Assembly: GCA_041478585.1 (NCBI GenBank)
Contig: JBGOWL010000001.1
Coordinates: 1-39,828, forward strand
Source of the DNA: Dehalococcoidia bacterium
Lineage (GTDB): Bacteria > Chloroflexota > Dehalococcoidia > UBA2247 > RBG-13-53-26
DNA: 39,828 nt
Direction: 5' to 3'
Position numbers and translations under genes: made by a program
The notes under the pieces: generated by a model
Told to the model about the DNA's origin: nothing
Databases searched by the model: none
What the model saw: only the letters and a program-made list of their open reading frames with translations
Shown here: positions 1-26,559 of the stretch, in pieces
How the letters are laid out: every line of letters begins with the position of its first letter
Position numbering within the stretch: position 1 is the stretch's first letter

Positions 1-1
1 C

Positions 2-463
2 TGGCCTGCGGACAGGGCTGATCAGGCCAGGCTGCTGAAGAAGCTGAGATCACGTACTCTGTCTGCGACCATGAACAGGAGGGCATTCTCGCTGATTTAC
101 TTCTTCTACTTCGTCATGAGTCTGCCACCGGTGATTCACCGACAGATAGTCAGGCTCCTGGTTTTCCTGCGGACACATGTTGATTGCCCTTTCCTGACCA
201 ACGGAGGCGTCGTCTGGCCCAAGATGGGCTCCCAAGAACCGGCTGTCACCCACATAGGCAATGCCAGGATAATCAATTTGACTGGCTTGTCGCCAGTGGT
301 GACACCGTGGAGACTGGGCTTTGGCGTCTGTACCTACAACAAGACTATGAATGTCTCTTTGATCTATAGACCATCCATGTTCTCCAGGGACAAAGTGCAG
401 CAATTCCTGGACTTGTACGTCGAAGAGGTGATGAACTACCAGGTCGGTTCGAAGGGCGCCTGA
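2..463 (+). CDS. 3' end of a CoA-dependent acyltransferase / condensation-domain-like protein; the 5' end lies outside the window
   Basis: Frame 2 has no stop from nt 2 up to the ATG at 71 listed in the ORF track, and ends at TGA 461-463. The C-terminal ...LGFGVCTYNKTMNVSLIYRPSMFSRDKVQQFLDLYVEEV looks like the last strand/helix of condensation/WS-DGAT/PapA5-type acyltransferases. Family assignment is by eye only. Confidence 0.35.
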   Translation, partial: WPADRADQARLLKKLRSRTLSATMNRRAFSLIYFFYFVMSLPPVIHRQIVRLLVFLRTHVDCPFLTNGGVVWPKMGSQEPAVTHIGNARIINLTGLSPVVTPWRLGFGVCTYNKTMNVSLIYRPSMFSRDKVQQFLDLYVEEVMNYQVGSKGA

Positions 464-672
464 CACTACCGGCTGCCGTTTCATCCCCAAACGCTTTCCC
501 TGTCATTCCAACTCCCCTGTGCCATGACTCCCTCATCATGCCATCCGCTCTCTTGTCACGTCATCACTCCGAAAACAGGGCATTTTCATACTTCGTGGTG
601 ACGGTGGCAACCGTCATGACACACGAGCTATGAACTGTGAACTACGAGCCATCAGCCATAAGCCACCTGTAG

Positions 673-693
673 GGGAGGCCCTGGTGGCCTCCC
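673..693. terminator. GC-rich hairpin between convergent genes (possible bidirectional terminator)
   Basis: GGGAGGCC (673-680), loop CTGGT, GGCCTCCC (686-693) form a perfect 8-bp stem. It lies between the + CDS end (463) and the - PPTase end (754). There is no clear U-tract on either strand. Confidence 0.3.
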
Positions 694-753
694 ATCGGGC
701 GGGGAGGGGACAAGCCTGCCGGAATCCATGGATCATAGCCCGAGCCCTGGGGT

Positions 754-1326
754 TCACTGACTTCCAGGGGTTATCCACTCAACGTCGTTGTCGTCTTTCA
801 GCACCGCAACGATATGCCCATCGTAGCGCAACTGTTCCACGGTATGGAGACGATCCTGGTAGAAGATCAGGATATGGGTCTTGTCCGGTACCGAGACCAC
901 CTGGCATGACCTCATGCCGGCCAGCCCTGTGCTGGCCGACTTGACCACCGCCTCTTTGGCTGTCCAGCAGCGGTAAAGGGCATCCCATGATCTGCCGCCG
1001 CAAAGCTCCCATTCCTCCTCTCCTGCCACATAGCCGAAGATCGATTGGCTGCGGGGCTTTATCTCCTCAATATCGATCCCTATTCGGTCGGTGCTGACGA
1101 CCGCTGCCACGTATTTGGTTTTGTGGGAAACAGACCAGTGATAGCTGCCTGATGGGCGGGGGACATCATCTTCGTCTTTGGATAGCTCCCGCAGTACCAC
1201 GCCGCTTCTATCGGCGCTCAGTCTCAGCGCCTGTCTGGCCTGTTTGCTGAGGAGGGCCACCTTCTGTCTGCCCTTGAGGGTCTGGAGGTCACTGGGCACT
1301 GGCAGAACGATGGGAAAGAGGGTCAT
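754..1326 (-). CDS. 4'-phosphopantetheinyl transferase (Sfp type)
   Basis: 190 aa with GIDIEEI (Mg/CoA motif) and WTAKEAVVK (W/FxxKEA motif). It is the last gene of the FAS-like operon, 4 nt after fabI. Confidence 0.85.
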   Translation of the reverse strand: MTLFPIVLPVPSDLQTLKGRQKVALLSKQARQALRLSADRSGVVLRELSKDEDDVPRPSGSYHWSVSHKTKYVAAVVSTDRIGIDIEEIKPRSQSIFGYVAGEEEWELCGGRSWDALYRCWTAKEAVVKSASTGLAGMRSCQVVSVPDKTHILIFYQDRLHTVEQLRYDGHIVAVLKDDNDVEWITPGSQ

Positions 1327-1330
1327 GTGG

Positions 1331-2134
1331 CTAATCCGGTTTCAGTGCCCTCTTGACGATGTCTTTATCGAAGGCGTTGACCGACATTCCGGCATCTATG
1401 ACGATGCCCTGGGCGTTGATCCCGCTGGACCGCTCGCTCAGGAGAAAGGCAGCCACGTTGGCCACTTCTTGCGTCTCCAGGGCTTTCTTGCGCAGCGTCA
1501 GTTGCTCTGCGAAGAGGTAGTAGTCAATATATCCCGGGATACCCGCCGAGGCGGACGTTTTCAATAGCCCTGGGTTGACCGAGTTGAACCGCACCTGGGA
1601 AAAGATGCTGAAGGACTTGGCCAGAAAGCATATGGTGGAGTCCAGACCTGCCTTCACCGGCGACATGAAGCCGTAAGTCTCCACCGCCATTCTGGTTGTC
1701 GATATTGATATGGTGACTACCGAGGCTTTGTTGTCCAGCAGGCTTCTGAAGGCATTGGCGATGCTGATCAGAGAATAGCAGGAGATATCAACGGACTGAA
1801 GGAAGTTCTTCTTTCTCGTTTCATGGAACGGTCTGACACCGTCTTCGTAGTTGGCGAAGGCGATGGAGTGCACGATCCCATGAATTACGGGGTGCTTCCT
1901 TGAAATGTCATCAGCCAGCTTGGTGATCTCTTCTTCCCGTTCTACATCACACGTGTAGATCTCAGCTCCGGGAAGAAGCTTGGAAACACTTTCCTTTCTC
2001 TCCGGAGAGCGCACTGAATAGATCACCTGCGCCTTTGCCTCCGAGAGAACCTGGCCTACGAGGTAGGCCACGCTCTTTTTGTTGGCCACACCGAAGACCA
2101 GGAAGATTTTGTTCTCCAGATTAAGGAAGTCCAT
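1331..2134 (-). CDS. fabI: enoyl-ACP reductase (FabI-type SDR)
   Basis: 267 aa. The N-terminus [20 protein letters not shown] matches the FabI GxAxxxSIA dinucleotide-fold signature, and length and layout are typical of FabI. Confidence 0.85.
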
Positions 2135-2145
2135 ATGGTGCCCTC

Positions 2146-2565
2146 CTACCCGCTGGCCAGGGTGACCGCGAATTCCACCGTGACCGCTGTCTTACCGTCA
2201 ACTGAGGCCTTGCCCTTCAGGAAATAGACATTGCTCATTTTTTCGGCGATTTCCGCCTCGATCTCCAGGGTGTCACCGGGCTTGACCATGTTCTTGAATT
2301 TGGCATTGTTGATTCTCGCCAGGACTGGGACGCCGTCCTCGACGTTGCCCATGATCCTGGACAGCAGAATGGCCCCCGATTGAAATATGGCCTCGCAGAC
2401 GAGCACTCCGGGCATGATCGGATTGCCAGGGTAGTGACCTTTGAAGAACTCTTCCTCAGGCCTTGCCTTTCTGGTCGTCTTTATCTTCGTATCTGTCAGC
2501 TCTACGATGGTATCGACAAACAGAAACGGCGGGCGGTGAGGTATGGCCTTCAGAATCTCTTCCAT
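2146..2565 (-). CDS. fabZ: 3-hydroxyacyl-ACP dehydratase (FabZ-like hotdog)
   Basis: HRPPFLFVD and [17 protein letters not shown] motifs. I place the start at ATG 2565 (MEEILK...) because GGAGGA lies 8 nt upstream and the fabG stop (TAG 2567-2569) is immediately adjacent. The tracked ORF start at 2607 would overlap fabG. Confidence 0.85.
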
Positions 2566-2566
2566 T

Positions 2567-3307
2567 CTATAATCCTCCGCTGACCTCCAGCACTGTGCCA
2601 TGAACATACGATGCGTCGCGAGAGGCCAGGAAAAGGACGCAGACGGCCACCTCTTCAGCTTTACCGAATCTCCTCATTGGAATCTGGGACAGGTATGCCT
2701 CCCGCAGTTTCTCAGGAAGATCATCGATGAATTCGGTGGTGATGAAGCCCGGAGAAACGCAATTGACCGTGATGCCTCTGGTGCCCACCTCTCTGGCCAG
2801 CGATCTCATCAGGCCGACCTGCCCGGCCTTGGAAGCGGCGTAGTTTGATTGGCCTTCCCACCCGAATCTCCCCATGGGTGAGGTGATGATGACAATTCGG
2901 CCGTACCGCTTGCGCATCAGGGACATGACAGCGAATTTGCACATGAAGAAGGTGCCGGTTAGGTTCACATCTAGCACATTGCGCCAGTCCGCTTCCTTCA
3001 TCATGGCCAGCACCGAATCCTTTCTGATACCGGCGCTGCTTATCAGAACTTCAAAGCCTCCGTAGGTGCTGTCCACATATTTGTAGAATTTCTCCACCTC
3101 TTCATAACTGGCTACGTCGAACTTCTGCACATCGATCCTGGCAGCGAACTGCTCGTTCTCCTGTTTGAACTGTGCTGCCGTCGCGTCATCTGAGACATAA
3201 GTGCAGATCACCCTGGCGCCTGACTTGAGAAAGGACTCCGCGATAGCCCTGCCAATGCCCCTGGTGCCGCCGGTGACGATAACAGTCTGACCTCCAAAGT
3301 CAACCAT
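2567..3307 (-). CDS. fabG: 3-oxoacyl-ACP reductase (FabG-type SDR)
   Basis: 246 aa with TGGTRGIGRAIA (TGxxxGIG), NYAASKAG (YxxxK) and a PGFITT segment. Confidence 0.85.
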   Translation of the reverse strand: MVDFGGQTVIVTGGTRGIGRAIAESFLKSGARVICTYVSDDATAAQFKQENEQFAARIDVQKFDVASYEEVEKFYKYVDSTYGGFEVLISSAGIRKDSVLAMMKEADWRNVLDVNLTGTFFMCKFAVMSLMRKRYGRIVIITSPMGRFGWEGQSNYAASKAGQVGLMRSLAREVGTRGITVNCVSPGFITTEFIDDLPEKLREAYLSQIPMRRFGKAEEVAVCVLFLASRDASYVHGTVLEVSGGL

Positions 3308-3331
3308 CTCTTGCCTCCTGAAAGGGCGCGC

Positions 3332-4750
3332 TCATGCCCTCAGATATTTGTCTGCGTTGTTGGCCACGATGACGCCATAATTGGCTGCGCCCAGCCATCC
3401 GGACATGATAATGCCCACCGAGCCGGTGTGGAAAAGCCCCCGAATCTGCGCGGGGAGCCCCATGCTGATCTTCAGTCCTTCGAATTTTGTGCCGAATGAG
3501 GTGCCGTTGGGATGAAGTGTATATCTTTCAAAGGTCTTCGGAGTAGCTGCCTCCAGATAGTCGATCTTGTCCCGAACCCCCGGGACGTATTTCCCCAGAG
3601 CATCGACAGTTGACTCGATCAATTCCTGCTTGGATGCTTGGTACTCTTCGGGGGAAAGGTTTGCCCAGTCCTCGTAGTTGGCATTTGTGGAAGCAACTAT
3701 GGAGTACATGTCTGATCCCGGTCTTGTCGTCGGGTAGTAGAAGGAATAGGTCCGACTGGTGATGTTCCTGCTGCGCAATTTCTCGGAGTCGAATTTTTCT
3801 GCCACGGAGGTGAAGTAGAGGTCACCGACGAAATCAATTGCTGCACCTTTCTTGATGCCGATGTAGACCTGGCAACTGCTGTTGTTGATGCGCACCTTTC
3901 TGGCCTCTTCAGCGAAGCCGCTGTCGAAATGCTCGTCGCCAACGAGGTTGCACACTGTTGATTTGGCATTGGCGTTGGAGACCACTGACCTGGCCTTGAT
4001 CGTTTTCCCGTTTGCTACTACGCCGGTGACTTGTCTGCCTTCCACAACTATCCTCTCTACCAGGGAGTGGGTGCGGATGTCGACCCCGTTCTTGATAAGC
4101 TCGGCCTGCATCATGGAGATGATCTTGTCGGTCCCGCCCTGGAAGGTGTAGACGCCTTTGCTCATGAAGTTGGAGAAGACGATTCCATAGCTTATCGCCG
4201 GATCGTCCAGGGTGGATCCATTGGCATAGGTTATTGGCTCCATCAGCAGACGAACCACATCGTCTCGGCCGGGAAAGAATTTCTCGAAGAGCTGTCTGGT
4301 GGTCATCTGCTGGTCGTCATAGAAATTCATTCCTCTGGCAGTATCGAAGAAGGCGTCAAGGGACTCCTTGGGCACTCTGAACTTCTCCTGTAGAATCCTT
4401 GTGAAGTCGTCCCTGTCGAAGGTGGTGCTGAGCGAGAACTGCGGATTGTCGAACCTGATCGCTTTGAGCTGGACAATTGAGTCGGCGATTTCACGATTCC
4501 AGTATTTGCGGCAGGTCTTGATCATACCCACGGGGAATCCGTGCAGGGAGATGTCAAAGATATGCCCGCCCTTTCTGTGGAACCATGTGGCCAGGCCGCC
4601 CAGCTTATGGTGGTGCTCCAGTAGCAGGACGGAGTAGCCGTCCTTGGCCAGCATGTTGGCTGCCGTCAGGCCGCCCAGCCCGCTGCCGATGACAATGACA
4701 TCATATTGTGGTCTTGTGCCTTCCAACCAGTCGCCAGCCATTTCTCTCAT
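3332..4750 (-). CDS. FAD-dependent oxidoreductase, phytoene desaturase (CrtI)/amine-oxidase family
   Basis: 472 aa. [37 protein letters not shown] is the classic GxGxxG-x17-E FAD fold of CrtI/CrtD/RetSat-like enzymes. It overlaps the upstream paralogue by 4 nt. Confidence 0.8.
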
Positions 4751-6186
4751 TTGTCCCTCAACAGGTGTAGATTTGCTATTGTAATGCCGCTCAGCATCGC
4801 GCCCACAATCCCCAGGAATCCCTGATCTGTACCACAGATGAAAAGGTTATCTAGATGCGTCCTGCCGTTTCTTACCTTTTGAGGCGAGCCATACACCGCC
4901 CCATTCAGATGTCCGGTGAATTTGTAGATTGTCTTCGGGGTGAACACATCGCTGAATATAATCGAATCCCGAAAATCGGGGACAATCTTCACTGCTGCCT
5001 CGAGGGTAGCCTTCAGACAAGCCTCCTTCTGCATCTTGTATTCTTCTTTGCCTAAGCTGTTCCAGCGGTCGAAGTTGGCCAGATTGGTGATCCTGATCAT
5101 ATTCTCGGGCAATGGACTGCCGATCACATTCTTGGGCGATGGATTGTCGAACGTATTCTCATGCGGTGGGTCCCCGAAAAAAAAATTGTTGGGACAGCAT
5201 ATGACCCCGCTGGAGACGTCTATCAGACTGTCGGGCTTTCGGTAGCTGAACCTGTCTGAGTCGTTGAAGAAGATTATGGTGGTCTCTAAACCCAGGTCAG
5301 AGGGTTGCTTGTCCACCACCAGGATGGATTCCATGAAGGAAAGCAGCCCCACTTCGTGTTTGGAAACTGTTGTATCGGGGTCGGACAACAGGTTCATGGT
5401 CTCAACATGGCCGACAGTGGACAAAACCTTGTCGGCTGTCAGGACATCGCCGTTGTCTAGCAGGAGGGATTCTGCTTTGCCACCTGAAACCCGAATGCTC
5501 TGTACTCCTGATCTCGTTCTCAATTCGCCGCCACAATCCCCGTATTTCTTCACCAGGAGGTCGAGGATATGCCGCACTCCGGCCCTCGGTCTGGCAAACC
5601 CCTGGCAGAAAATGCTCTTGAACATGATAACAAACTGACCAAATTCCATATCATGCTCCTGGGCGTTCCCATAGTACATAAGTGGGCAGAAAAGCATGTC
5701 AACCAGCAGTGGATTGGAGATTATGCTGCTCACCACCTGGCGTGCCGAAAGTGGCTTTGCCTCCAGTGACAGTTCGTCATATTCGGATATGGTCTTGAGC
5801 AGTTTCTGAAAGTTGTCAGTCTGAGCTGGGAAGTTCTCGGCGACCTCACTGAGAAAAAACTCGAAGTTGTTGGTGAATCGAATTTTCCTTTCGGGAAACT
5901 TGATGACCGACATACGTTGTTGACATAAATCAAGGTCCTCGAATCTCAGCCTCAGTTGTCGCAGCAGCTTTGGCAATGGTGTCGACTTGACACCTTTAGG
6001 AACATAGTTGGTCATGGCATGCAAGCCAACATCGAGCTTGTATCCGTCCTTGCTGTAGAAAGAGTTCAGTCCCCCGACGCGGTGGTGTTTCTCAAGTATG
6101 CAGACCTTCTTGTCGAAGTAGGCTAGCCTGATGCCGGCGGCGAGTCCGGACATTCCTGCGCCAATAATCAAAACGTCGTAGTTCAT
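4747..6186 (-). CDS. FAD-dependent oxidoreductase, phytoene desaturase (CrtI)/amine-oxidase family, second paralogue
   Basis: 479 aa. [37 protein letters not shown] is the N-terminal FAD fold. A 4-nt overlap with the next gene indicates translational coupling. Confidence 0.8.
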
Positions 6187-6352
6187 GGCTCAAGTAATAT
6201 GATCAGCGACCTTCGTATCCCCATGGTCCAGCGGTACAGTGGCTGAAGCAATGTTGGCGGTTGTCTTCACCCCCAGCAGCCCGGCAGTATGGCGGGGTTC
6301 TGGGGGTACGGTGAAGAAAGAAACTGTACTCAGTCTCTTTGCTTGTCTGGGG

Positions 6353-6604
6353 CTAGAGGTGTGCCATGCGCGGTTCGAGGTATGCCACTGCGCCATCGAG
6401 CGTAGCCATCTGAATGTAGTCGTCTTCTGGGACCTCGATTCCGTAGCGTTTTCGCAGTTCCATGATTATGTCCAGGAAGTCCATGGAATCCAACTCAATC
6501 TGGTCACGGATACGGATGTCACCCCTCAGATTGCTCAGATCTTCATCTGGCACAATTTGGGCAATCACTTCCACAATGACAGATCTGATTTGTTCACCAA
6601 GCAT
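6353..6604 (-). CDS. acyl carrier protein
   Basis: 83 aa with a DQIELDSMDFLDIIMEL phosphopantetheine-attachment (DSx) motif. ATG start with a purine-rich RBS (AGGGGGGG) upstream. Confidence 0.85.
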   Translation of the reverse strand: MLGEQIRSVIVEVIAQIVPDEDLSNLRGDIRIRDQIELDSMDFLDIIMELRKRYGIEVPEDDYIQMATLDGAVAYLEPRMAHL

Positions 6605-6645
6605 AAGCCATCCCCCCCTCTAGAATAGCTGTAACTACTATTTCT

Positions 6646-7935
6646 TCAGCATTGCCCATCAAATCTTTTGACGATAACTACCGAATTGATGCCAAGCATG
6701 CCGAAGGAATTATTCATGATATGGTCAATCTTGTCAACCTTTGCGGGCTTATTGATCACCAGATTGGGAATGGCGCATCGGGGGTCCAGGTTGTCCAAGT
6801 TTACTGTTGGATGAACAAAATTGTCATTGAAAGAGGGCAGGTTCCCTGCCAGCTCCAGAGCCCCGGCGGCTCCCATGGTATGGCCGATGTAACTCTTCGT
6901 GTTATTGGTGTAGGTACGGGGGGCATCTTTGAAGACCTCTGCAATTGCCTGGCACTCCTGCAAGTCGCCCTGTTGAGTCCCCGTGGCGTGGCTGCTGACA
7001 ATATCGATATCACTGGCGGAAAGTCCGGCCTTTTTCAACGCCAGCCTCATGCACTCGGCCTGTCTCGGCGCATGTGGAAGAATGAAATCAAATGCATCCG
7101 AGTTTGTGGCATAACCTACGATTTCGCCATAAATCGTAGCCGATCTCCTGAGGGCATCGCTCAGTCTCTCCAGAAGGCAGACACAACCGCCTTCCGAGAC
7201 AACGACGCCGTTTCGGTCCCTGTCAAAGGGGCGGCATGCTTTATGAGGATCAGAATGAGAGGCCAACGCACCCTCACTCTTGAAGCCGGCGAATATGCCG
7301 AAGCTATGAATGCTCTCCGAGACTCCGCCCGCCAGGGCCAGATCTACCTCATCAAGCAGCAGCATTTGCAGACCCTGAATGAGACCGATGTTGCCAGCGG
7401 CGCAGGCGGCTCCCAGGGTGTAGTGAGGTCCGGTGATCCCCATGTTCAAGGTGACTTCGCCAGCCGGATTGTTGGCCACTGTTCTGGGATTGTGGTGATG
7501 TGACCAGTATTTGACGTCATAGTCATATTGCTTGATGGCGTAGATCTCGTTCTCAGTCTCTATATTGCCATGCTCGGTAATTCCAAGGTACACGCCGATC
7601 CCGGATTTGTCCAATGTGGTGAGATCCAGTCCTGAATGAGCGACAGCCTCATTGGCGCAGTAGATGGCTATGGAGCCTGCTCGTGTACCGCGCCGCAACT
7701 CTTTTTTTTTCTGGTACTTCAGCGGGTCGAAGTGGCATACACCTGCCAGTACCTCACCCATGTAATGGGTTTCGATTCTCTCTATGCCAGCCTTCCCGTT
7801 AAGCAGGTTCTGTCTGAATTCCGAGAGGCTATTGCCATTCGGGGCGGTCAGGCCGACGCCTGTAATCACAATACGCTGTTCATTGGCCATTTCGATCTTA
7901 GAGTCCTTGGTTCTTGCTAGAGATACCATGTTCAA
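6646..7935 (-). CDS. beta-ketoacyl-ACP synthase (KAS I/II, FabB/FabF-like)
   Basis: VITGVGLTAP, GAACAAG (active-site Cys), SSHATGT and GHTMGAAG (His/His) motifs. The tracked ORF begins with TTG at 7935. ATG at 7890 (MANEQRIVITG) is the more likely start given the putative promoter at 7921-7948. Confidence 0.9.
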   Translation of the reverse strand: MNMVSLARTKDSKIEMANEQRIVITGVGLTAPNGNSLSEFRQNLLNGKAGIERIETHYMGEVLAGVCHFDPLKYQKKKELRRGTRAGSIAIYCANEAVAHSGLDLTTLDKSGIGVYLGITEHGNIETENEIYAIKQYDYDVKYWSHHHNPRTVANNPAGEVTLNMGITGPHYTLGAACAAGNIGLIQGLQMLLLDEVDLALAGGVSESIHSFGIFAGFKSEGALASHSDPHKACRPFDRDRNGVVVSEGGCVCLLERLSDALRRSATIYGEIVGYATNSDAFDFILPHAPRQAECMRLALKKAGLSASDIDIVSSHATGTQQGDLQECQAIAEVFKDAPRTYTNNTKSYIGHTMGAAGALELAGNLPSFNDNFVHPTVNLDNLDPRCAIPNLVINKPAKVDKIDHIMNNSFGMLGINSVVIVKRFDGQC

Positions 7936-7964
7936 TACTCATTGTCAAATTAGTGGTGTGCGTT

Positions 7965-7993
7965 TTGACAATCTATCCGTCCCGCTCTATCAT
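7965..7993 (+). promoter_or_regulatory. candidate sigma70-type promoter for marC-family gene
   Basis: TTGACA (7965-7970), a 17-nt spacer, then TATCAT (7988-7993), 43 nt upstream of the start at 8036. The -35 box lies in one arm of a 9-bp inverted repeat. Confidence 0.35.
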
Positions 7994-8035
7994 CAGGGAT
8001 CGATTCAGGCACAGCAATAATCCGGAGAATAGCTG

Positions 8036-8626
8036 GTGGAAGATTTCGTCAAGACCTTCGTACCCCTCTTCATAGTGATAGATGCCTTTGGCAATCTGCC
8101 GTTTGTCCTCTCTTTGAGCGAAGGTGCGACCAGGAGCGAGCGACACCGGATGATCAACATTGCTGTCCTAACTGCAGCTGTGCTCGGCCTGGCGTTCTTG
8201 TTCATGGGCAAGGCCATTCTGGATGTGATGGGCATTTCTGTAGGTGCCTTTGCTGTTGCAGGGGGGCTCATTCTCCTTGTCCTTTCAATCAGGTATATAC
8301 TGACAGGCCACATTGTCGAGGTTATCAAAGAAGAAATGGTGGCAGTTGTTCCTATCGGCACTCCTCTGACAGTTGGTCCGGCCACGATAACGACACTACT
8401 GCTCCTGGCAACTCAGTTCCCGCTATATATGGTGCTGATGTCTTTCGCTTTGAATATTGCTGTGGCGTGGATGTTCTTCATGTTGAGCGGTTGGTTTGTG
8501 CGCGTCTTGGGACAAGGTGGTATCAAGGCAGTCTCAAAGGTGTTCAGCCTGTTGCTGGCAGCTATCGCTGTGACCATGGTTATCGACGGTCTGGATAGGC
8601 TCGGCGTACTTACTATTGAAATGTAG
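8036..8626 (+). CDS. MarC-family (UPF0056) integral membrane protein
   Basis: 196 aa and multi-TM. The N-terminal FVPLFIVIDAFGNLPFVLSL resembles the MarC family signature. Confidence 0.8.
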   Translation: MEDFVKTFVPLFIVIDAFGNLPFVLSLSEGATRSERHRMINIAVLTAAVLGLAFLFMGKAILDVMGISVGAFAVAGGLILLVLSIRYILTGHIVEVIKEEMVAVVPIGTPLTVGPATITTLLLLATQFPLYMVLMSFALNIAVAWMFFMLSGWFVRVLGQGGIKAVSKVFSLLLAAIAVTMVIDGLDRLGVLTIEM

Positions 8627-8723
8627 TTTGGACGAGAGATGCATATGAGGCCAAATAGATGATCCATGTCTGACCATGTGGTGTAAGGCTTGCTTTTCAT
8701 AGGCTTATGCCTGCGGTGCCGAT

Positions 8724-9440
8724 ATGGGTTTCGATCAAATCTACATGCAGAACCTGCTGGAGAAAGTCAAACATGAGAACTCACTGGATCTGCTGGGCAT
8801 AGCGGATGTACGGGGATCAAGAGAAGGATTTCTCGAACTGCCCAAAGATGTCAGAGAGATATTCCCTTTGGCCATTGTGATTGCCGTACGTGTTTCTCGA
8901 AGTGTGCTCAATACCCTGGAAGATGGCCCGAATCTCCTCTACTATCATCACTATCGACAGCTCAACTTCCAACTGGATCGAGCAGCGTTGAGGATGGCTC
9001 AGGAGATCGAGAGGGAAGGTTATGCGGCTCTACCCATACCTGCTTCACAAATCGTGAACTGGGCGACCATGAAGGGTCACTTGCCGCACAAAGATGTTGC
9101 CTACCTGGCTGGGTTGGGCTGGCGAGGCCGAAGCAATCTTCTGATTACTGAAGAATGGGGTTCCCAGATGCGCTTGGCCACTGTGCTGACGAACTTACCT
9201 CTGGATGCTGGCTATCCGCTGGAAGTGGATTGTGGATCCTGCCGTCGCTGTTTGGCTGTTTGCCCGGCGGGGGCGATAAAAGAGGAGCCTGGTGCGTTTG
9301 ATCACACGGCATGCTACCAGCAATTGAAAGAGTTCAGCAAAACGCGACAGATTGGACAATACGTGTGTGGGCTTTGTGTGAAAGCCTGCCACGGTTCGGC
9401 TGGCAATCGAGAGGGATCAATCACAGGAAGTGTCAGGTAG
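8724..9440 (+). CDS. QueG/RdhA-superfamily 4Fe-4S protein (short epoxyqueuosine-reductase-like)
   Basis: HKDVAYLAGLGWRGRSNLLITEEWGSQMRLATVLTNLPL followed by CGSCRRCLAVCPAGAI and CGLCVKAC matches the QueG core as I remember it. At 238 aa it is much shorter than canonical QueG (about 380 aa). Confidence 0.65.
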   Translation: MGFDQIYMQNLLEKVKHENSLDLLGIADVRGSREGFLELPKDVREIFPLAIVIAVRVSRSVLNTLEDGPNLLYYHHYRQLNFQLDRAALRMAQEIEREGYAALPIPASQIVNWATMKGHLPHKDVAYLAGLGWRGRSNLLITEEWGSQMRLATVLTNLPLDAGYPLEVDCGSCRRCLAVCPAGAIKEEPGAFDHTACYQQLKEFSKTRQIGQYVCGLCVKACHGSAGNREGSITGSVR

Positions 9441-9443
9441 CCA

Positions 9444-9977
9444 ATGGGAAGAGCCAAGGAACCACAACTGGTGAAGACCTTTGTGGGCATGCTTACGGCT
9501 CGGTTATCCCTCCTGCCCAAAGTAAACAGCTTGCTCCAGGAGAGATTGGGGCCGATTGATATCGAGAGTGACACACTGGACTTCAACTACACGCGGTACT
9601 ACGAGGAAGAGATGGGGCCGGGATTGAAGAGACGCTTTCTGGGATTTCATCATCTGGTACCTCCCGATAGACTGGTGGAGGTGAAGCTCTTCACTAACGA
9701 GTTGGAACAGATCCTCGCTGAAGAAGGAGAACGGCTGGTGAATCTGGACCCGGGATACCTGACCTCGGCCAAGGTGGTACTGGTCAGCACCAAGGATTAT
9801 GCGCATCGTCTCTATTTGAGCGGTGGAATATATGGTGAAGTCACGCTGGTCTATCAGGACAGGCGGTTCCAGATACTGCCGTGGACCTATCCTGACTATC
9901 GGAGTGAGGCATACCATGAATTCTTCAAGAAACTGCGGGCAGCGTATCTGGGGCAAATAGAGATCAAAGGTACTTGA
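9444..9977 (+). CDS. DUF4416-family protein
   Basis: 177 aa. FNYTRYYEEEMG and NLDPGYLTSAKVVLVSTKDYAHRLYL match the remembered DUF4416 pattern. It starts 3 nt after the upstream stop. Confidence 0.7.
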   Translation: MGRAKEPQLVKTFVGMLTARLSLLPKVNSLLQERLGPIDIESDTLDFNYTRYYEEEMGPGLKRRFLGFHHLVPPDRLVEVKLFTNELEQILAEEGERLVNLDPGYLTSAKVVLVSTKDYAHRLYLSGGIYGEVTLVYQDRRFQILPWTYPDYRSEAYHEFFKKLRAAYLGQIEIKGT

Positions 9978-10074
9978 CATTTGACCGCTCGTATGCATAT
10001 TATTCGCACAGTGTAGCTGTAAGCACGAGGAAGTGTGCCCAGTTGCGCGAGAAAAACAAAAAGGAGGGTGAATC

Positions 10075-10218
10075 ATGCCGCAAGCCTACTGTGTGAAGTG
10101 CCGCAAGAAGAGGGAGATTCAGAATCCGAGACAGGTCACTCTGAAGAACAAGCGGCCAGCCGTAAGTGGCACCTGCCCGGTGTGCAAGACCAAGGTATTT
10201 CGGATCGGCAAAGGCTAG
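10075..10218 (+). CDS. small zinc-ribbon protein (DUF5679-like), 47 aa; not in the ORF track
   Basis: AGGAGG lies 7 nt upstream of ATG 10075. Translation is MPQAYCVKCRKKREIQNPRQVTLKNKRPAVSGTCPVCKTKVFRIGKG, with two CxxC pairs, ending at TAG 10216-10218. Confidence 0.6.
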   Translation: MPQAYCVKCRKKREIQNPRQVTLKNKRPAVSGTCPVCKTKVFRIGKG

Positions 10219-10283
10219 AGTCTGCCTCAAGGTGGTTGAGGTGGCAGCCTGAGCTGGGCTTAGTGTTGGTATTATGTAGTGAG

Positions 10284-10321
10284 GTCACTCAGGAGGTGCT
10301 CTTATTATCTTCCTGAGTGAC
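10284..10321. terminator. hairpin with an 11-bp perfect stem downstream of the small zinc-ribbon gene
   Basis: GTCACTCAGGA (10284-10294), a 16-nt loop, then TCCTGAGTGAC (10311-10321). Only a weak T-rich run follows (ccaaggTTTaggTTT). Confidence 0.4.
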
Positions 10322-10324
10322 CAA

Positions 10325-10720
10325 GGTTTAGGTTTACTGTCTACTGGTTGGCGTGGAGCCTTGCCTGTGAATTGCAGGGGGACTTGTTGTAGATACCCAC
10401 GGGCAGAGCCCGTGGCACTTGTTGATGACAAGCTTTGCTTGACGCCCTACGGGCGAGTTCTCATTCCCCCACGGGCAAGCTCGTGGAACCCTGCCCTTCG
10501 GGTTATTGGATGGACTTTCATGCTCGGGAATGTACCCCATCCTGTGAGCCTTGACCGAAGAAGGCTGCTGTAGCGCTACTATCAGTGATTTCATGTTTCT
10601 CTCTCCTCTTCGATCTCCGAGTGAGGATACTGGTCTTTCTTGGGTCATCATTCGTTTTTGTCCGTAGCCATCTGTTGACTCTTGCCCTCCTGCTCTGCTC
10701 ATATAGAAATCCTTCGGATC
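10325..10720. other. structured non-coding region (candidate ncRNA, class and strand unassigned)
   Basis: No convincing CDS. Consecutive stem-loops: 10397-10415 (7 bp), 10418-10432 (5 bp), 10443-10455 (5 bp), 10469-10486 (5 bp), 10487-10504 (5 bp), 10508-10542 (6 bp) and 10547-10566 (6 bp). The motif CCCACGGGCA occurs twice (10396, 10468), with a variant CCCTACGGGCG at 10445. Confidence 0.3.
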
Positions 10721-10992
10721 CAATGCTATTGCCTTGCGGTCGGAATGTGTCTTGATTCGGCAGAGTCTGTGCCCAGTGACCGCGAGGGGGTGTGACTGGG
10801 GAGACGCTGGCTCGGTTGTCGATGGTTGTGTTTACGCAGTCTTTCAGACAGTGATTCGGACAACCCTTCTCTTGTCTGTCGGTGGAGTTTCAATGCTTGT
10901 GGAGAGTCTGCGAGTGGCCTGGAATATCGGTCTTTGCTGGACACCTGGAATTCAGCTGTTGGCCTGAAGGTGAACGAATGCTTGTCCTGGCG

Positions 10993-11709
10993 TCACTGAG
11001 GACTGGCTGCTTCTTCGCGGGGTTCGCCGATGATGGGGTGGACGACGGGATCAAAGATAATGTTGTCACCGGCCTGTTTGAGGGATTCATGGACATCAAA
11101 GTCTAAGGTGAGAGATGTGGTGCGATCAGCCTGAATTTCGAAGGGGCCAACGAGTTTGAGTATACCACTTGGCAGGTGTATTTCGGCGTTGCTACCATCG
11201 ACAGTGACGTTGTCCAAAGTCAGCCGTATCTGGGTGTAATGGCCTGCCTCAAGCTCGTTGTCCCCCAGTAGCTCCTTCACATCCTGGAGCTGGAGTGCTA
11301 CCAGATCAAAGGTCCTATTGTCCGGGATCACTGTTATCCAGGATTGTTCGTCATCAACATTATCACTGTCACCGGCACTGTGAACCTGTACTTGAGAAAC
11401 GGTTACGTTCACGGATGAAACCTCTCCTGGTGCATCAGTCACCCAAATCTCCAGTGTGCCTGACATGGTCTTAGTAGGTGACATAAGGGGAAGTATGACA
11501 AAATAGGCGATGAGTCCTATAGCCAGGGCTATGGCAACTGGTGCCCATACCAGAGGTCTGAGCCAAAGAGGCTGCGGTCTGGGCTGGCTGCCTGCGGTGT
11601 CAATCAGATGCTTGCGTAGTCGCTCCTTGAATTCAGATGACGCACTTGCTGGTTTGTAGGCTTCCTTTAGCATTTTCTTCAGGCCATCTTCGTTGTTATG
11701 ATCTAGCAT
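10993..11709 (-). CDS. membrane-anchored DUF4382-domain protein with an anti-sigma-like N-terminus
   Basis: 238 aa: a short cytoplasmic N-terminus, one TM (LVWAPVAIALAIGLIAYFVIL), then a region matching the remembered DUF4382 pattern (FDLVALQ..., AGHYTQIRLTL, LPSGILKL, LTLDFDVHESL). It sits directly downstream of a sigma-factor remnant. Confidence 0.7.
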   Translation of the reverse strand: MLDHNNEDGLKKMLKEAYKPASASSEFKERLRKHLIDTAGSQPRPQPLWLRPLVWAPVAIALAIGLIAYFVILPLMSPTKTMSGTLEIWVTDAPGEVSSVNVTVSQVQVHSAGDSDNVDDEQSWITVIPDNRTFDLVALQLQDVKELLGDNELEAGHYTQIRLTLDNVTVDGSNAEIHLPSGILKLVGPFEIQADRTTSLTLDFDVHESLKQAGDNIIFDPVVHPIIGEPREEAASPQ

Positions 11710-11749
11710 ATTGTCCCTCTACCCGTATAGTCGTTTTACCCTGTCATTA

Positions 11750-11953
11750 TCACTTGCTTAGCGCATGCAATTTGGCCTGCAAGGATTTTAGTGTTCGGGC
11801 CAGCAGTCCCTCAATTGACTTTGGGGAGCGGCCCACGATTCGGCCCATTTCTAAGACGGACATTTCCTCAACGTACTTGAGTACTGGGACCTGCTCATAA
11901 TCCCAGGGCAAGCTGGCTATGGCTTGCTGGACGAGTGTGCTAGTGTAGTGTCT
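11750..11953 (-). pseudogene. truncated ECF sigma factor (region 4 only)
   Basis: My translation of the minus strand is ...TLVQQAIASLPWDYEQVPVLKYVEEMSVLEMGRIVGRSPKSIEGLLARTLKSLQAKLHALSK* (stop 11750-11752), a sigma70 region-4 HTH. An in-frame TAG lies at 11954-11956 with no start codon, and no region-2 sequence appears in any upstream frame. Confidence 0.6.
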
Positions 11954-12059
11954 CTAACACTTCGTTAGCTCGTCGAACCTTGCGAAGAATGGTTTTCAGG
12001 GAAGCCATACAGACGAGGACGAGAACTATACTGATGAAATTTAGGAATCACTACACTAG
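11940..12059. repeat. 120-bp element bounded by 11-bp perfect terminal inverted repeats (MITE-like or insertion scar)
   Basis: CTAGTGTAGTG (11940-11950) and CACTACACTAG (12049-12059) are exact reverse complements, with imperfect extension inward (TCTCTAA / ATTCCTAA). The left repeat coincides with the 5' break of the sigma remnant. Confidence 0.4.
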
Positions 12060-26001: not shown

Positions 26002-26559
26002 CTATAGCTTTCCTTTCAGAGTCTCCTTCATTAGTATTCTACTGTAGTCCCAGAATTGTTGGCGCATACTTCTGAAATCGAGGGTGGTTACTGTGCTACC
26101 GAGGACTCCGAATGGAAGCATCTGAGGTATGAATCCCCTGGCGTATTTAAGCATCCACGTGCGGGGTTTCATACGGTAGCCTTTGTCAGTGCCTCTGCGA
26201 AGGTAGGCCATGTCTCCGGGTTTGTAGATGGCGGGTTCGAACTGGCCTTGCGTATAGCACCACATTTCTCCATCCAGCACGATGTCGTACACATCAGCCC
26301 AATACCGCCCTGAGTATCCTCCTGTAGGAATGGGTGTACCAAAGAAGATAAGATACTCCGACATTGAGCCGTAGAGTACAGTGAGCATGCCCATGGCACC
26401 GCCTGCGACGTTAAAGATCCATCTCCTCTTGCTCGGTATGCGGCCTGGGCATCGCTTATCCAGCGCATCGGAGATTGCTTCGAATTTCTCTTCCAGTGGC
26501 AAATCGAGGTTCTGCTTGCATGTCTCCTGCAATAGATCAGGATCAAAGATATATGCCAT
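26002..26559 (-). CDS. ERG2 / sigma-1 receptor family protein (bacterial homologue, no N-terminal TM)
   Basis: 185 aa, colinear with my recollection of human SIGMAR1 from about residue 55 to the end: WIFNVAGGAMGMLTVLYGSMSEYLIFFGT...GYSGRYWADVYDIVLDG...TWMLKYARGFIP versus [29 protein letters not shown]...GHSGRYWAEISDTIISG...TWMVEYGRGVIP. RBS GGGGAGAGG. Confidence 0.8.
   Translation of the reverse strand: MAYIFDPDLLQETCKQNLDLPLEEKFEAISDALDKRCPGRIPSKRRWIFNVAGGAMGMLTVLYGSMSEYLIFFGTPIPTGGYSGRYWADVYDIVLDGEMWCYTQGQFEPAIYKPGDMAYLRRGTDKGYRMKPRTWMLKYARGFIPQMLPFGVLGSTVTTLDFRSMRQQFWDYSRILMKETLKGKL

Follow-up and report, generated by a model that had tools for sequence, protein, structure and literature searches.

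Phytoene-dehydrogenase-like genes were described in type II fatty acid synthase (FASII) clusters of Kuenenia and Desulfotalea psychrophila by Rattray et al. 2009 (PMC2649909). D. psychrophila possesses two adjacent genes of this kind, DP2405/DP2406, forms C31:8/C31:9 hydrocarbons and has no pfa genes, and a novel anaerobic route to polyunsaturated fatty acids (PUFA) was proposed for those clusters (PMC2649909). The Kuenenia homologues do not desaturate phytoene (Javidpour 2016, PMC4790861), and the phytoene-dehydrogenase-like enzyme of candidate ladderane clusters is still uncharacterised in reviews to 2023 and 2026 (PMC10139942, PMC13459092). UfaD, also a phytoene-dehydrogenase-like enzyme, is proven as a fatty acyl desaturase (PMC7380195). 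In Shewanella, OleA converts a Pfa-derived 16:4 chain bound to acyl carrier protein (ACP) into C31:9, the double bonds of which are methylene-interrupted and not conjugated (PMC6463001). C31:9 is characteristic of Gemmataceae (PMC7534041), and ole genes and olefins are found in Planctomycetes, Verrucomicrobia and Chloroflexi (PMC7158056). Here we analyse an operon at positions 754-7935 of a 39.8-kb stretch of a Dehalococcoidia genome (contig JBGOWL010000001.1, positions 1 to 39,828; hereafter the window), which combines a fatty acid elongation module with two flavoproteins of the CrtI/amine-oxidase fold, named here Crt1 and Crt2. Related cassettes were found to be physically linked to olefin (ole) genes in other lineages, and this linkage is the main new result of the analysis. 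As the linkage is frequent, the probable products of the cassette are unusual unsaturated chains destined for long hydrocarbons. The literature search found no characterisation of the cassette and no mention of its fusion with ole genes, an absence which is no proof. An initial annotation of the window had drawn a parallel to the candidate ladderane clusters; the parallel is correct, and the enzymes in question are still uncharacterised (PMC2649909, PMC4790861, PMC10139942).

The eight open reading frames (ORFs) all lie on the minus strand in one direction, at the positions first assigned to them. Domain calls of all eight genes were confirmed with Pfam and NCBIfam. The genes, together with a convergent neighbour at the window edge, are as follows.

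7935..6646, minus strand: KS, FabF-like beta-ketoacyl-ACP synthase, 429 aa as longest ORF, PF00109 and PF02801
6604..6353, minus strand: dedicated ACP, 83 aa, PF00550, phosphopantetheine site LDSMDF
6186..4747, minus strand: Crt1, CrtI/amine-oxidase-fold flavin adenine dinucleotide (FAD) protein, 479 aa, PF01593 and PF13450
4750..3332, minus strand: Crt2, second CrtI/amine-oxidase-fold FAD protein, 472 aa, PF01593 and PF13450
3307..2567, minus strand: KR, FabG-type 3-oxoacyl-ACP reductase, 246 aa, adh_short_C2/FabG
2607..2146, minus strand: DH, FabZ-type 3-hydroxyacyl-ACP dehydratase, FabA/FabZ, probable start 2565 (139 aa)
2134..1331, minus strand: ER, divergent FabI-type enoyl-ACP reductase, 267 aa, PF13561 (adh_short_C2)
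1326..754, minus strand: PPTase, Sfp-type 4'-phosphopantetheinyl transferase, 190 aa, PF01648 (ACPS)
2..463, plus strand: condensation-domain acyltransferase, 3' end only, 153 codons, cut by the window edge, convergent

The spacings in order from KS to PPTase are 41, 166, -4, 24, (-41 or +1), 11 and 4 nt. The tight, co-directional arrangement from KS to PPTase which had been annotated initially is therefore confirmed by ORFs, Pfam and NCBIfam, and so is the pair of ~475-aa CrtI-fold FAD proteins (479 and 472 aa), in which the end of Crt1 is joined to the start of Crt2 by a 4-nt ATGA stop/start overlap.

More than 554 encoding loci were found, the cassette being present in more than 550 genomes. 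One genome per species was scanned, and the best 80 of the more than 554 loci (L001-L080) were compared. At least six phyla are represented among these 80 loci, in the groups Chloroflexi/Dehalococcoidia, Planctomycetota, Nitrospirae, Nitrospinae, Verrucomicrobia (Opitutaceae), Cloacimonadota and Deltaproteobacteria metagenome-assembled genomes (MAGs). The Opitutaceae carriers include the isolates Oleiharenicola sp. Vm1 and Horticoccus sp. The order KS-ACP-Crt1-Crt2-(FabG)-FabZ-FabI is kept in most of the 80 loci, and Crt1-Crt2 is placed between ACP and KR in every phylum examined. Conservation of gene order across at least six phyla indicates that this is not a chance arrangement. The initial annotation had proposed a search for the same synteny in other genomes, and the outcome is that the order recurs and the cassette is not rare. 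Overall, the cassette proteins are 53-77% identical across phyla, with a median identity to the window proteins of 67-76% for KS and 63-74% for Crt2. Each flavoprotein has at least 8000 candidate homologues, with ~70-78% identity in the top 120, other phyla included, and the mean column identity among Crt2 orthologues is 85%. The closest relatives of the window are the Chloroflexi bacterium RBG_13_53_26 (L001), a Lake Tanganyika Chloroflexi MAG (L042) and L081 (1.84-Mb contig, ENA ERZ25039480 contig_30969). All three share the window layout, the L001 contig stopping within Crt2. Variation was observed around this core: the PPTase belongs to the operon in the Chloroflexi/Dehalococcoidia versions, FabD follows the PPTase in L002 and L003, FabG is missing from the Opitutaceae cassettes, and the Nitrospinae cassettes sit among the housekeeping genes frr-cdsA-dxr-ispF. 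Crt1 and Crt2 are separated in some Opitutaceae by a gene for a xylose-isomerase-like TIM-barrel protein (PF01261; L074:11385-12317, plus strand), and gaps of ~0.9-1.8 kb between the two were also seen in L063, L073, L078 and L080.

When all ORFs of the 80 loci were clustered, a FabH-like family was found recurrently beside the cassette. This family is OleA. It scored 417-441 bits with NCBIfam PRK09258, and its best PDB matches were 3ROW, 3S21, 4KU2 and entries of the 5VX and 6B2 series with E values of 1e-55 to 1e-63, against 1e-20 or worse for any FabH. These entries we take to be structures of Xanthomonas campestris OleA. The accompanying OleC has NF045786 (olefin beta-lactone synthetase) as its best match with 605 bits, and OleD has NF042422 (2-alkyl-3-oxoalkanoate reductase) with 378 bits, both below the equivalog cut-off. 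The OleB candidate, a haloalkane-dehalogenase-like hydrolase, was named by synteny only. Three different arrangements were distinguished. In Nitrospirae, oleA-B-C-D is followed by a B12-binding radical S-adenosylmethionine (SAM) gene and then by the cassette (L023, L024, L027, L029; OleD also in L019). In 12 Opitutaceae loci oleA-oleB comes directly after FabI, and in ~13 loci of Dehalococcoidia, Planctomycetota and Deltaproteobacteria oleA is immediately upstream of KS. That the cassette has been joined to ole genes independently in four phyla argues strongly for a shared pathway, and the linkage points to a head-to-head olefin pathway. The earlier reading of the operon was broadly right, and it was incomplete in this respect, the ole linkage being not visible from the window alone.

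Two further features of the ole-linked loci were observed. In some Dehalococcoidia (L002:3-5077 and L026:4435-9833) the oleA-KS(-ACP) module is duplicated in tandem ahead of Crt1. This recalls LstA/LstB and similar OleA homologues, which work as heterodimers and join two different chains. The B12-binding radical SAM gene of Nitrospirae (PF04055, PF02310, DUF4070; L023:6792-8363, plus strand, and alike in other Nitrospirae) lies between oleD and KS. It weakly matches TIGR04072 ('lipid biosynthesis B12-binding/radical SAM') and echoes the anammox and Desulfotalea clusters.

Crt1 and Crt2 are paralogues with 25% identity (E 8e-29). In both, the FAD-binding GxGxxG motif is intact and PF01593 and PF13450 score above cut-offs, placing them in the amine-oxidase/CrtI superfamily. 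Their scores with the carotenoid families are low. Crt1 has 65 bits with crtI_fam, 88 with carot_isom and 60 with CrtD, and Crt2 has 86, 120 and 109 bits, respectively, against cut-offs of 238 (crtI_fam, TIGR02734), 587 (carot_isom, TIGR02730) and 550 (CrtD). The scores are thus 3- to 7-fold under all carotenoid family cut-offs. The top curated model for Crt1 and Crt2 alike is carot_isom, yet below its cut-off; some orthologues are labelled retinol saturase in public records and others 'phytoene dehydrogenase-like'. With CrtISO/RetSat-type models scoring highest, isomerase or saturase chemistry on C=C bonds already present is favoured no less than desaturation de novo. The search of solved structures by sequence found no close relative of Crt1 or Crt2. 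An AlphaFold2 model of Crt2 (predicted local distance difference test, pLDDT, 66) has the carotenoid desaturase 4REP as its top Foldseek match (TM 0.67), and it also matches 3KA7, CrtI 4DGK and the plant phytoene desaturase 5MOG, at generic fold level only. Residues ~340-357 of Crt1 form an 18-residue insertion which is missing from nearly all orthologues (460-461 aa), and the relative P0007 has a 9-residue version of it. P0127, which is 99% identical to Crt2, was deposited as 'Acidobacteriota bacterium' and all other close relatives are Chloroflexi; a mis-binned public MAG is a possible reason for this label.

The elongation enzymes comprise a complete type II module, namely a thiolase-fold KS with Cys-His-His, a discrete ACP, KR, DH and ER. 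KS, ACP and FabI all miss the NCBIfam housekeeping equivalog cut-offs for FabF, AcpP and FabI, in agreement with the proposal of a pathway apart from canonical fatty acid synthesis. KS has 307 bits with fabF TIGR03150 (cut-off 494) and 71 bits with the PfaA model (cut-off 1010). Aligned to FabF structures, it keeps the Cys, His, His and active-site Lys residues. Near residue 413, the FabF/FabB gate NSFG-FGG-TN is changed to NSFG-M(L/F/V)G-IN (GFGG to GMLG in the window), and this GM(L/F/V)G gate, with Met in place of the gatekeeper Phe, is common to ~52 KS orthologues of loci L001-L080. The Met gatekeeper suggests an altered acyl or malonyl-ACP gate. ACP reaches at most 40 bits in every NCBIfam ACP model, where the cut-offs are at least 65 (66-70 for AcpP equivalogs). 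It has 22.8 bits with E. coli AcpP and 22.5 bits with the 7AUF chain ('similar to acyl carrier protein'), presumably an anammox ACP. FabI has 170 bits with its best equivalog (cut-off 362). FabG and FabZ look ordinary by the same measure. FabG scores 280 bits with TIGR01830 (cut-off 298) and passes subfamily NF009466 with 246 bits (cut-off 222), while FabZ passes NF000582 with 130 bits (cut-off 113) and matches FabZ structures at E 6e-24. The PPTase gives weak matches to the AusB, EntD, AcpT and HetI families of NCBIfam.

The gene content, the distance from the housekeeping families, the conservation of the cassette and its physical linkage to ole genes agree best with an operon encoding a second, specialised fatty acid synthase of type II (FAS), which together with its flavoproteins would make an unusual, probably polyunsaturated acyl-ACP to be condensed by OleA in most carrier lineages. 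We favour this reading tentatively, with somewhat less than even confidence. The substrate, the flavoprotein chemistry, the product and the off-loading step in the following scheme are proposals. The PPTase of the operon would activate the dedicated ACP, on which KS, KR, DH and ER would carry out elongation cycles, ER serving the saturated ones. The translationally coupled Crt1 and Crt2 would act on ACP-bound unsaturated intermediates, keeping or repositioning double bonds without O2. In the Pfa model, methylene-interrupted cis bonds need trans-2 to cis-3 plus trans-2 to cis-2 isomerisation, and flavoenzymes of the same fold do both types, CrtISO performing a geometric isomerisation and Propionibacterium linoleate isomerase an allylic shift; Crt1 and Crt2 are therefore proposed for both steps on enoyl-ACP. 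The most economical assignment would give the allylic isomerisation (trans-2 to cis-3) to one flavoprotein and the geometric one (trans-2 to cis-2) to its partner. Alternatively, they may act as an (allylic) desaturase. The resulting acyl-ACP, unusual and probably polyunsaturated, would be condensed head-to-head by the adjacent OleA thiolase, with OleBCD, to long-chain polyolefins or ketones, possibly of C31:9 type, in most carrier lineages. In the window lineage, the convergent condensation-domain acyltransferase is a candidate for moving the chain from ACP to an acceptor, and OleA may be encoded elsewhere in the genome. The system had been called self-contained, which is too strong. No FabD and no priming KS are present and the Opitutaceae cassettes are even without FabG, indicating that it leans on housekeeping enzymes; in Opitutaceae the missing FabG implies cooperation with a separate housekeeping FAS.

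A wider proposal was also considered, which we regard as possible and on the whole doubtful. PUFA would be made by a third route, built of discrete (type II) proteins, in which two CrtISO/RetSat-like flavoproteins replace FabA-type domains as allylic (2,3) and geometric (2,2) enoyl-ACP isomerases or desaturases. It would supply OleA in C31:9 makers without pfa, such as D. psychrophila (PMC2649909), and would define the chemistry of the phytoene-dehydrogenase-like enzymes of candidate ladderane clusters. Opitutaceae TAV2 and Planctomyces maris reportedly make C31:9.

Several observations weigh against the polyunsaturated, olefin-forming pathway favoured here. No ole gene was found within 8-10 kb of the cassette in the window sublineage (window, L001, L042, L081) or in ~29 Nitrospinae loci; the olefin link is not universal, and it may not apply to the window organism. 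To our knowledge, no polyunsaturated fatty acids have been reported for Nitrospina. The Crt2 model gives the generic fold only and does not separate isomerase from desaturase, and the Crt1 structure, predicted from a 14-sequence alignment, had a pLDDT of 39 and was not used. Geobacter and Gemmata, which produce C31:9, have pfa-like genes which could suffice for it (PMC3098273). More distant anammox homologues gave no PUFA in heterologous expression (PMC10139942).

The flavoproteins might instead act late. In this case FAS would make an ordinary or monounsaturated chain, and Crt1 and Crt2 would desaturate, isomerise or saturate an Ole-derived C27-C31 olefin or ketone or a lipid-esterified chain, giving conjugated polyenes or a reduced product. 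In favour of this, the typical substrates of CrtI-fold enzymes are long hydrophobic chains in free form, a carotenoid desaturase is the nearest match by structure, and UfaD modifies chains held in phospholipids. There is also the linkage to ole genes, the products of which are similar in size to carotenoid precursors. We consider late action unlikely, as Crt1 and Crt2 are tightly coupled between ACP and KR even without nearby ole genes (Nitrospinae, window), a dedicated KS, ACP and ER would be needless for ordinary chains, and C31:9 is not conjugated. A smaller probability is given to the operon being the housekeeping FAS of the organism, with flavoproteins for O2-independent monounsaturation analogous to FabA/FabB, FabM or FabX. 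The completeness of the elongation cycle, the lack of other fab genes in the 39.8-kb window, the position of the Nitrospinae cassette among frr-cdsA-dxr-ispF and the window context, which suggests an anaerobe, are compatible with such a role. KS, ACP and FabI miss their equivalog cut-offs widely, however, with ACP far from AcpP, and no FabD or FabH is found in the window. Moreover, another FAS must exist in Opitutaceae, where FabG is missing from the cassette, and both the ole fusion in four phyla and the patchy cross-phylum spread at 65-75% identity are unlike vertically inherited core FAS genes.

Slightly less probable again is another exotic lipid, such as a cyclised or ladderane-like chain, an aryl-polyene/flexirubin-like pigment or a metabolite acylated by the condensation enzyme, to which the ole link would be secondary. 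There is a family resemblance to the anammox candidate clusters (FabF, ACP, FabZ, phytoene-dehydrogenase-like enzyme, B12 radical SAM), extended by the Nitrospirae radical SAM gene between oleD and KS with its weak TIGR04072 match; FabG is weakly like the flexirubin reductase FlxB, a precomputed ApeI-like Pfam match exists for FabZ, and a condensation-domain gene is the neighbour. The window lacks any radical SAM, second or chain-length-factor KS, adenylation or aromatic-starter gene, though, and it possesses an enoyl reductase, unlike aryl-polyene systems. Ladderanes are restricted to anammox bacteria (PMC10139942). That Crt1 and Crt2 are genuine carotenoid or isoprenoid enzymes merely sitting in a fab operon is scarcely credible, in spite of the Amino_oxidase domain, best named matches to carotenoid isomerase and desaturase, and public labels. 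Against it stand scores far under the family cut-offs and the invariant ACP-KR position across phyla. Except dxr/ispF in Nitrospinae, no isoprenoid gene was present among the recurrent neighbour families of the 80 loci, of which the cluster representatives were annotated. Linkage to crtB/crtE, named in the initial annotation as a counter-sign, was likewise absent from these families and from the scanned ORFs of the window. Phytoene is not desaturated by the homologues from anammox bacteria, which are more distant (PMC4790861).

The initial annotation had noted a condensation-like acyltransferase gene convergent at the window edge, and the homology search bears this out. The edge ORF shares 74% identity with the C-terminal part of L042:15420-16868, a protein of 482 aa (PF00668, E 6e-17, 62 bits), and comprises the last 153 residues of a stand-alone Condensation-domain (PapA5/WS-DGAT-like) protein of ~480 aa. 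The gene is convergent after PPTase in seven related loci (L009, L011, L013, L017, L031, L042, L081), and the homologue of L009, which is full-length, shows an HHxxxDG motif. Among solved structures it has no close relative, the best being a nonribosomal peptide synthetase C domain at E ~5e-3. In L009 a DUF362 protein gene (PF04015; L009:15718-17022, minus strand) is paired with it, as also in L011, L013, L017 and L031. This partner is missing from the window lineage, judged by L042 and L081, since the window itself stops inside the condensation gene.

Start positions were compared with orthologues. The longest FabZ ORF overlaps FabG by 41 nt, and the start at 2565 leaves a 1-nt gap; an independent gene call in the close relative L081 gives a FabZ of 139 aa beginning 1 nt past FabG. 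KS probably starts at Met16 (7890), the start also called in L081, and for Crt2 the second ATG, which lies 9 nt further downstream and is used by most orthologues, is a possible start. The genes are tightly coupled under either set of start choices. The 166-nt spacer between ACP and Crt1 contains no recognisable RNA or ORF, the Rfam scan of positions 1-12000 found no RNA family, and terminator-like sites in 1-9000 occur at chance frequency (7 found, 8.2 expected). A sigma-70-like match of 11/12 (TTGACA-17-AATAAT) at 6737..6709, minus strand, in the 3' end of KS, precedes the ACP start by ~100 nt. As a consensus match only, it is a possible internal promoter. The GC content of the operon is the same as that of the remainder of the window.

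The 39.8-kb window contains no FabD, FabH/OleA, OleB/C/D, thioesterase or further fab gene, so the initially reported absence of FabD, FabH and thioesterase holds for its whole length. The region 12962-34721 includes trehalose-phosphatase, GlgB and GlgE of alpha-glucan metabolism, methylenetetrahydrofolate reductase (MTHFR) with its C-terminal partner, a NuoF-like/[2Fe-2S] module, a formate-dehydrogenase-like molybdoenzyme, Crp, an ABC-2 transporter and two-component regulators. The MTHFR, NuoF-like and formate-dehydrogenase-like set suggests an anaerobic, Wood-Ljungdahl-type lifestyle. The argument from an anaerobic host to the flavoprotein function is nevertheless weak, as the cassette is abundant in Nitrospina and Opitutaceae, lineages which include aerobes. 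At 26002-26559, minus strand, a 185-aa ORF gives an almost full-length match to PF04622, the ERG2/sigma-1-receptor family (E 1e-58). This family is known mainly for eukaryotic sterol C8-isomerases, and the match is unexpected on a Chloroflexi-like contig.

If the favoured pathway is true, a widespread and highly conserved cassette, ranging from Dehalococcoidia to Nitrospina to Opitutaceae, would represent unexplored flavin chemistry on acyl-ACPs. It would account for the precursors of C31:9-type hydrocarbons in bacteria without Pfa synthases, and would give a handle on the 15-year-old question of the role of phytoene-dehydrogenase-like enzymes in ladderane-type FAS clusters. Compared with anammox enrichments, the cassette-bearing isolates of Oleiharenicola, Horticoccus and Nitrospina should be much more convenient to handle, and the cassette could give compact discrete parts for anaerobic engineering of unsaturated lipids or olefins. 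The interest of the system lies in its breadth and conservation, in the new Ole linkage and in an old question made experimentally approachable.

Compared with known systems, the carotenoid-type enzymes CrtI, CrtD, CrtISO and RetSat share with Crt1 and Crt2 the FAD Rossmann motif and the amine-oxidase fold. They differ in that the family cut-offs are missed, no carotenoid gene context exists, and the setting is the ACP-KR interval of a fatty acid operon. With the cut-offs missed and no crtB/crtE among the scanned window ORFs or the annotated neighbour families, carotenoid function was rejected. Aryl-polyene/flexirubin clusters have a KS/chain-length-factor pair, two DHs, no ER and starter enzymes. 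The window, with a single KS, FabI and no starter or adenylation genes, was therefore rejected as an aryl-polyene cluster. FabX of Helicobacter pylori (PMC8626469) is a flavin/[4Fe-4S] decanoyl-ACP dehydrogenase-isomerase which likewise introduces a cis double bond without O2. It is set apart, by description, as a single enzyme of a different fold that serves housekeeping unsaturated fatty acid synthesis. UfaD is similar in being a CrtI-related flavoprotein that acts on an acyl chain beside an existing double bond; its substrate, however, is a phospholipid-bound methylated 18:1, its reaction appears to be O2-linked, and its partners are a SAM methylase and UfaO, with no FAS module.

The proposed pathway would operate like Pfa with OleABCD of Shewanella, in which a polyunsaturated chain is built up on ACP without O2 by KS, KR, DH, ER and double-bond isomerisation and is handed to OleA (PMC6463001), and adjacency to ole genes is seen in both systems. 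Pfa is a multidomain megasynthase of type I which carries ACPs in tandem and FabA-like domains for the DH/isomerase steps, whereas the cassette encodes discrete proteins with a FabZ-type DH and no FabA-like domain, its flavoproteins being the candidates for the isomerase or desaturase part. The ole genes accompany the system in relatives and none is in the window. The anammox ladderane-candidate cluster contains ACP, FabZ, two FabF paralogues, one phytoene-dehydrogenase-like gene and a B12 radical SAM gene (PMC10139942), and the window does not fit this composition. Its ACP is no closer to 7AUF, the putative anammox ACP, than to other ACPs. Ladderane synthesis was thus rejected, there being no radical SAM or second KS in the window and no specific likeness of ACP to 7AUF. 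The FASII clusters of Kuenenia and Desulfotalea resemble the window in having a divergent FabF, a dedicated ACP and FabZ beside CrtI-fold flavoprotein genes, the comparison with DP2405/2406 and kuste3336/3607 being by description only. The window differs from them in adding its own FabG, FabI and PPTase, FabI being unlinked in both published organisms, in having two flavoproteins, and in being without radical SAM or SAM-methylase genes. It is a distinct eight-gene variant of a class of FAS-plus-CrtI-like clusters which had previously been noticed and is uncharacterised.

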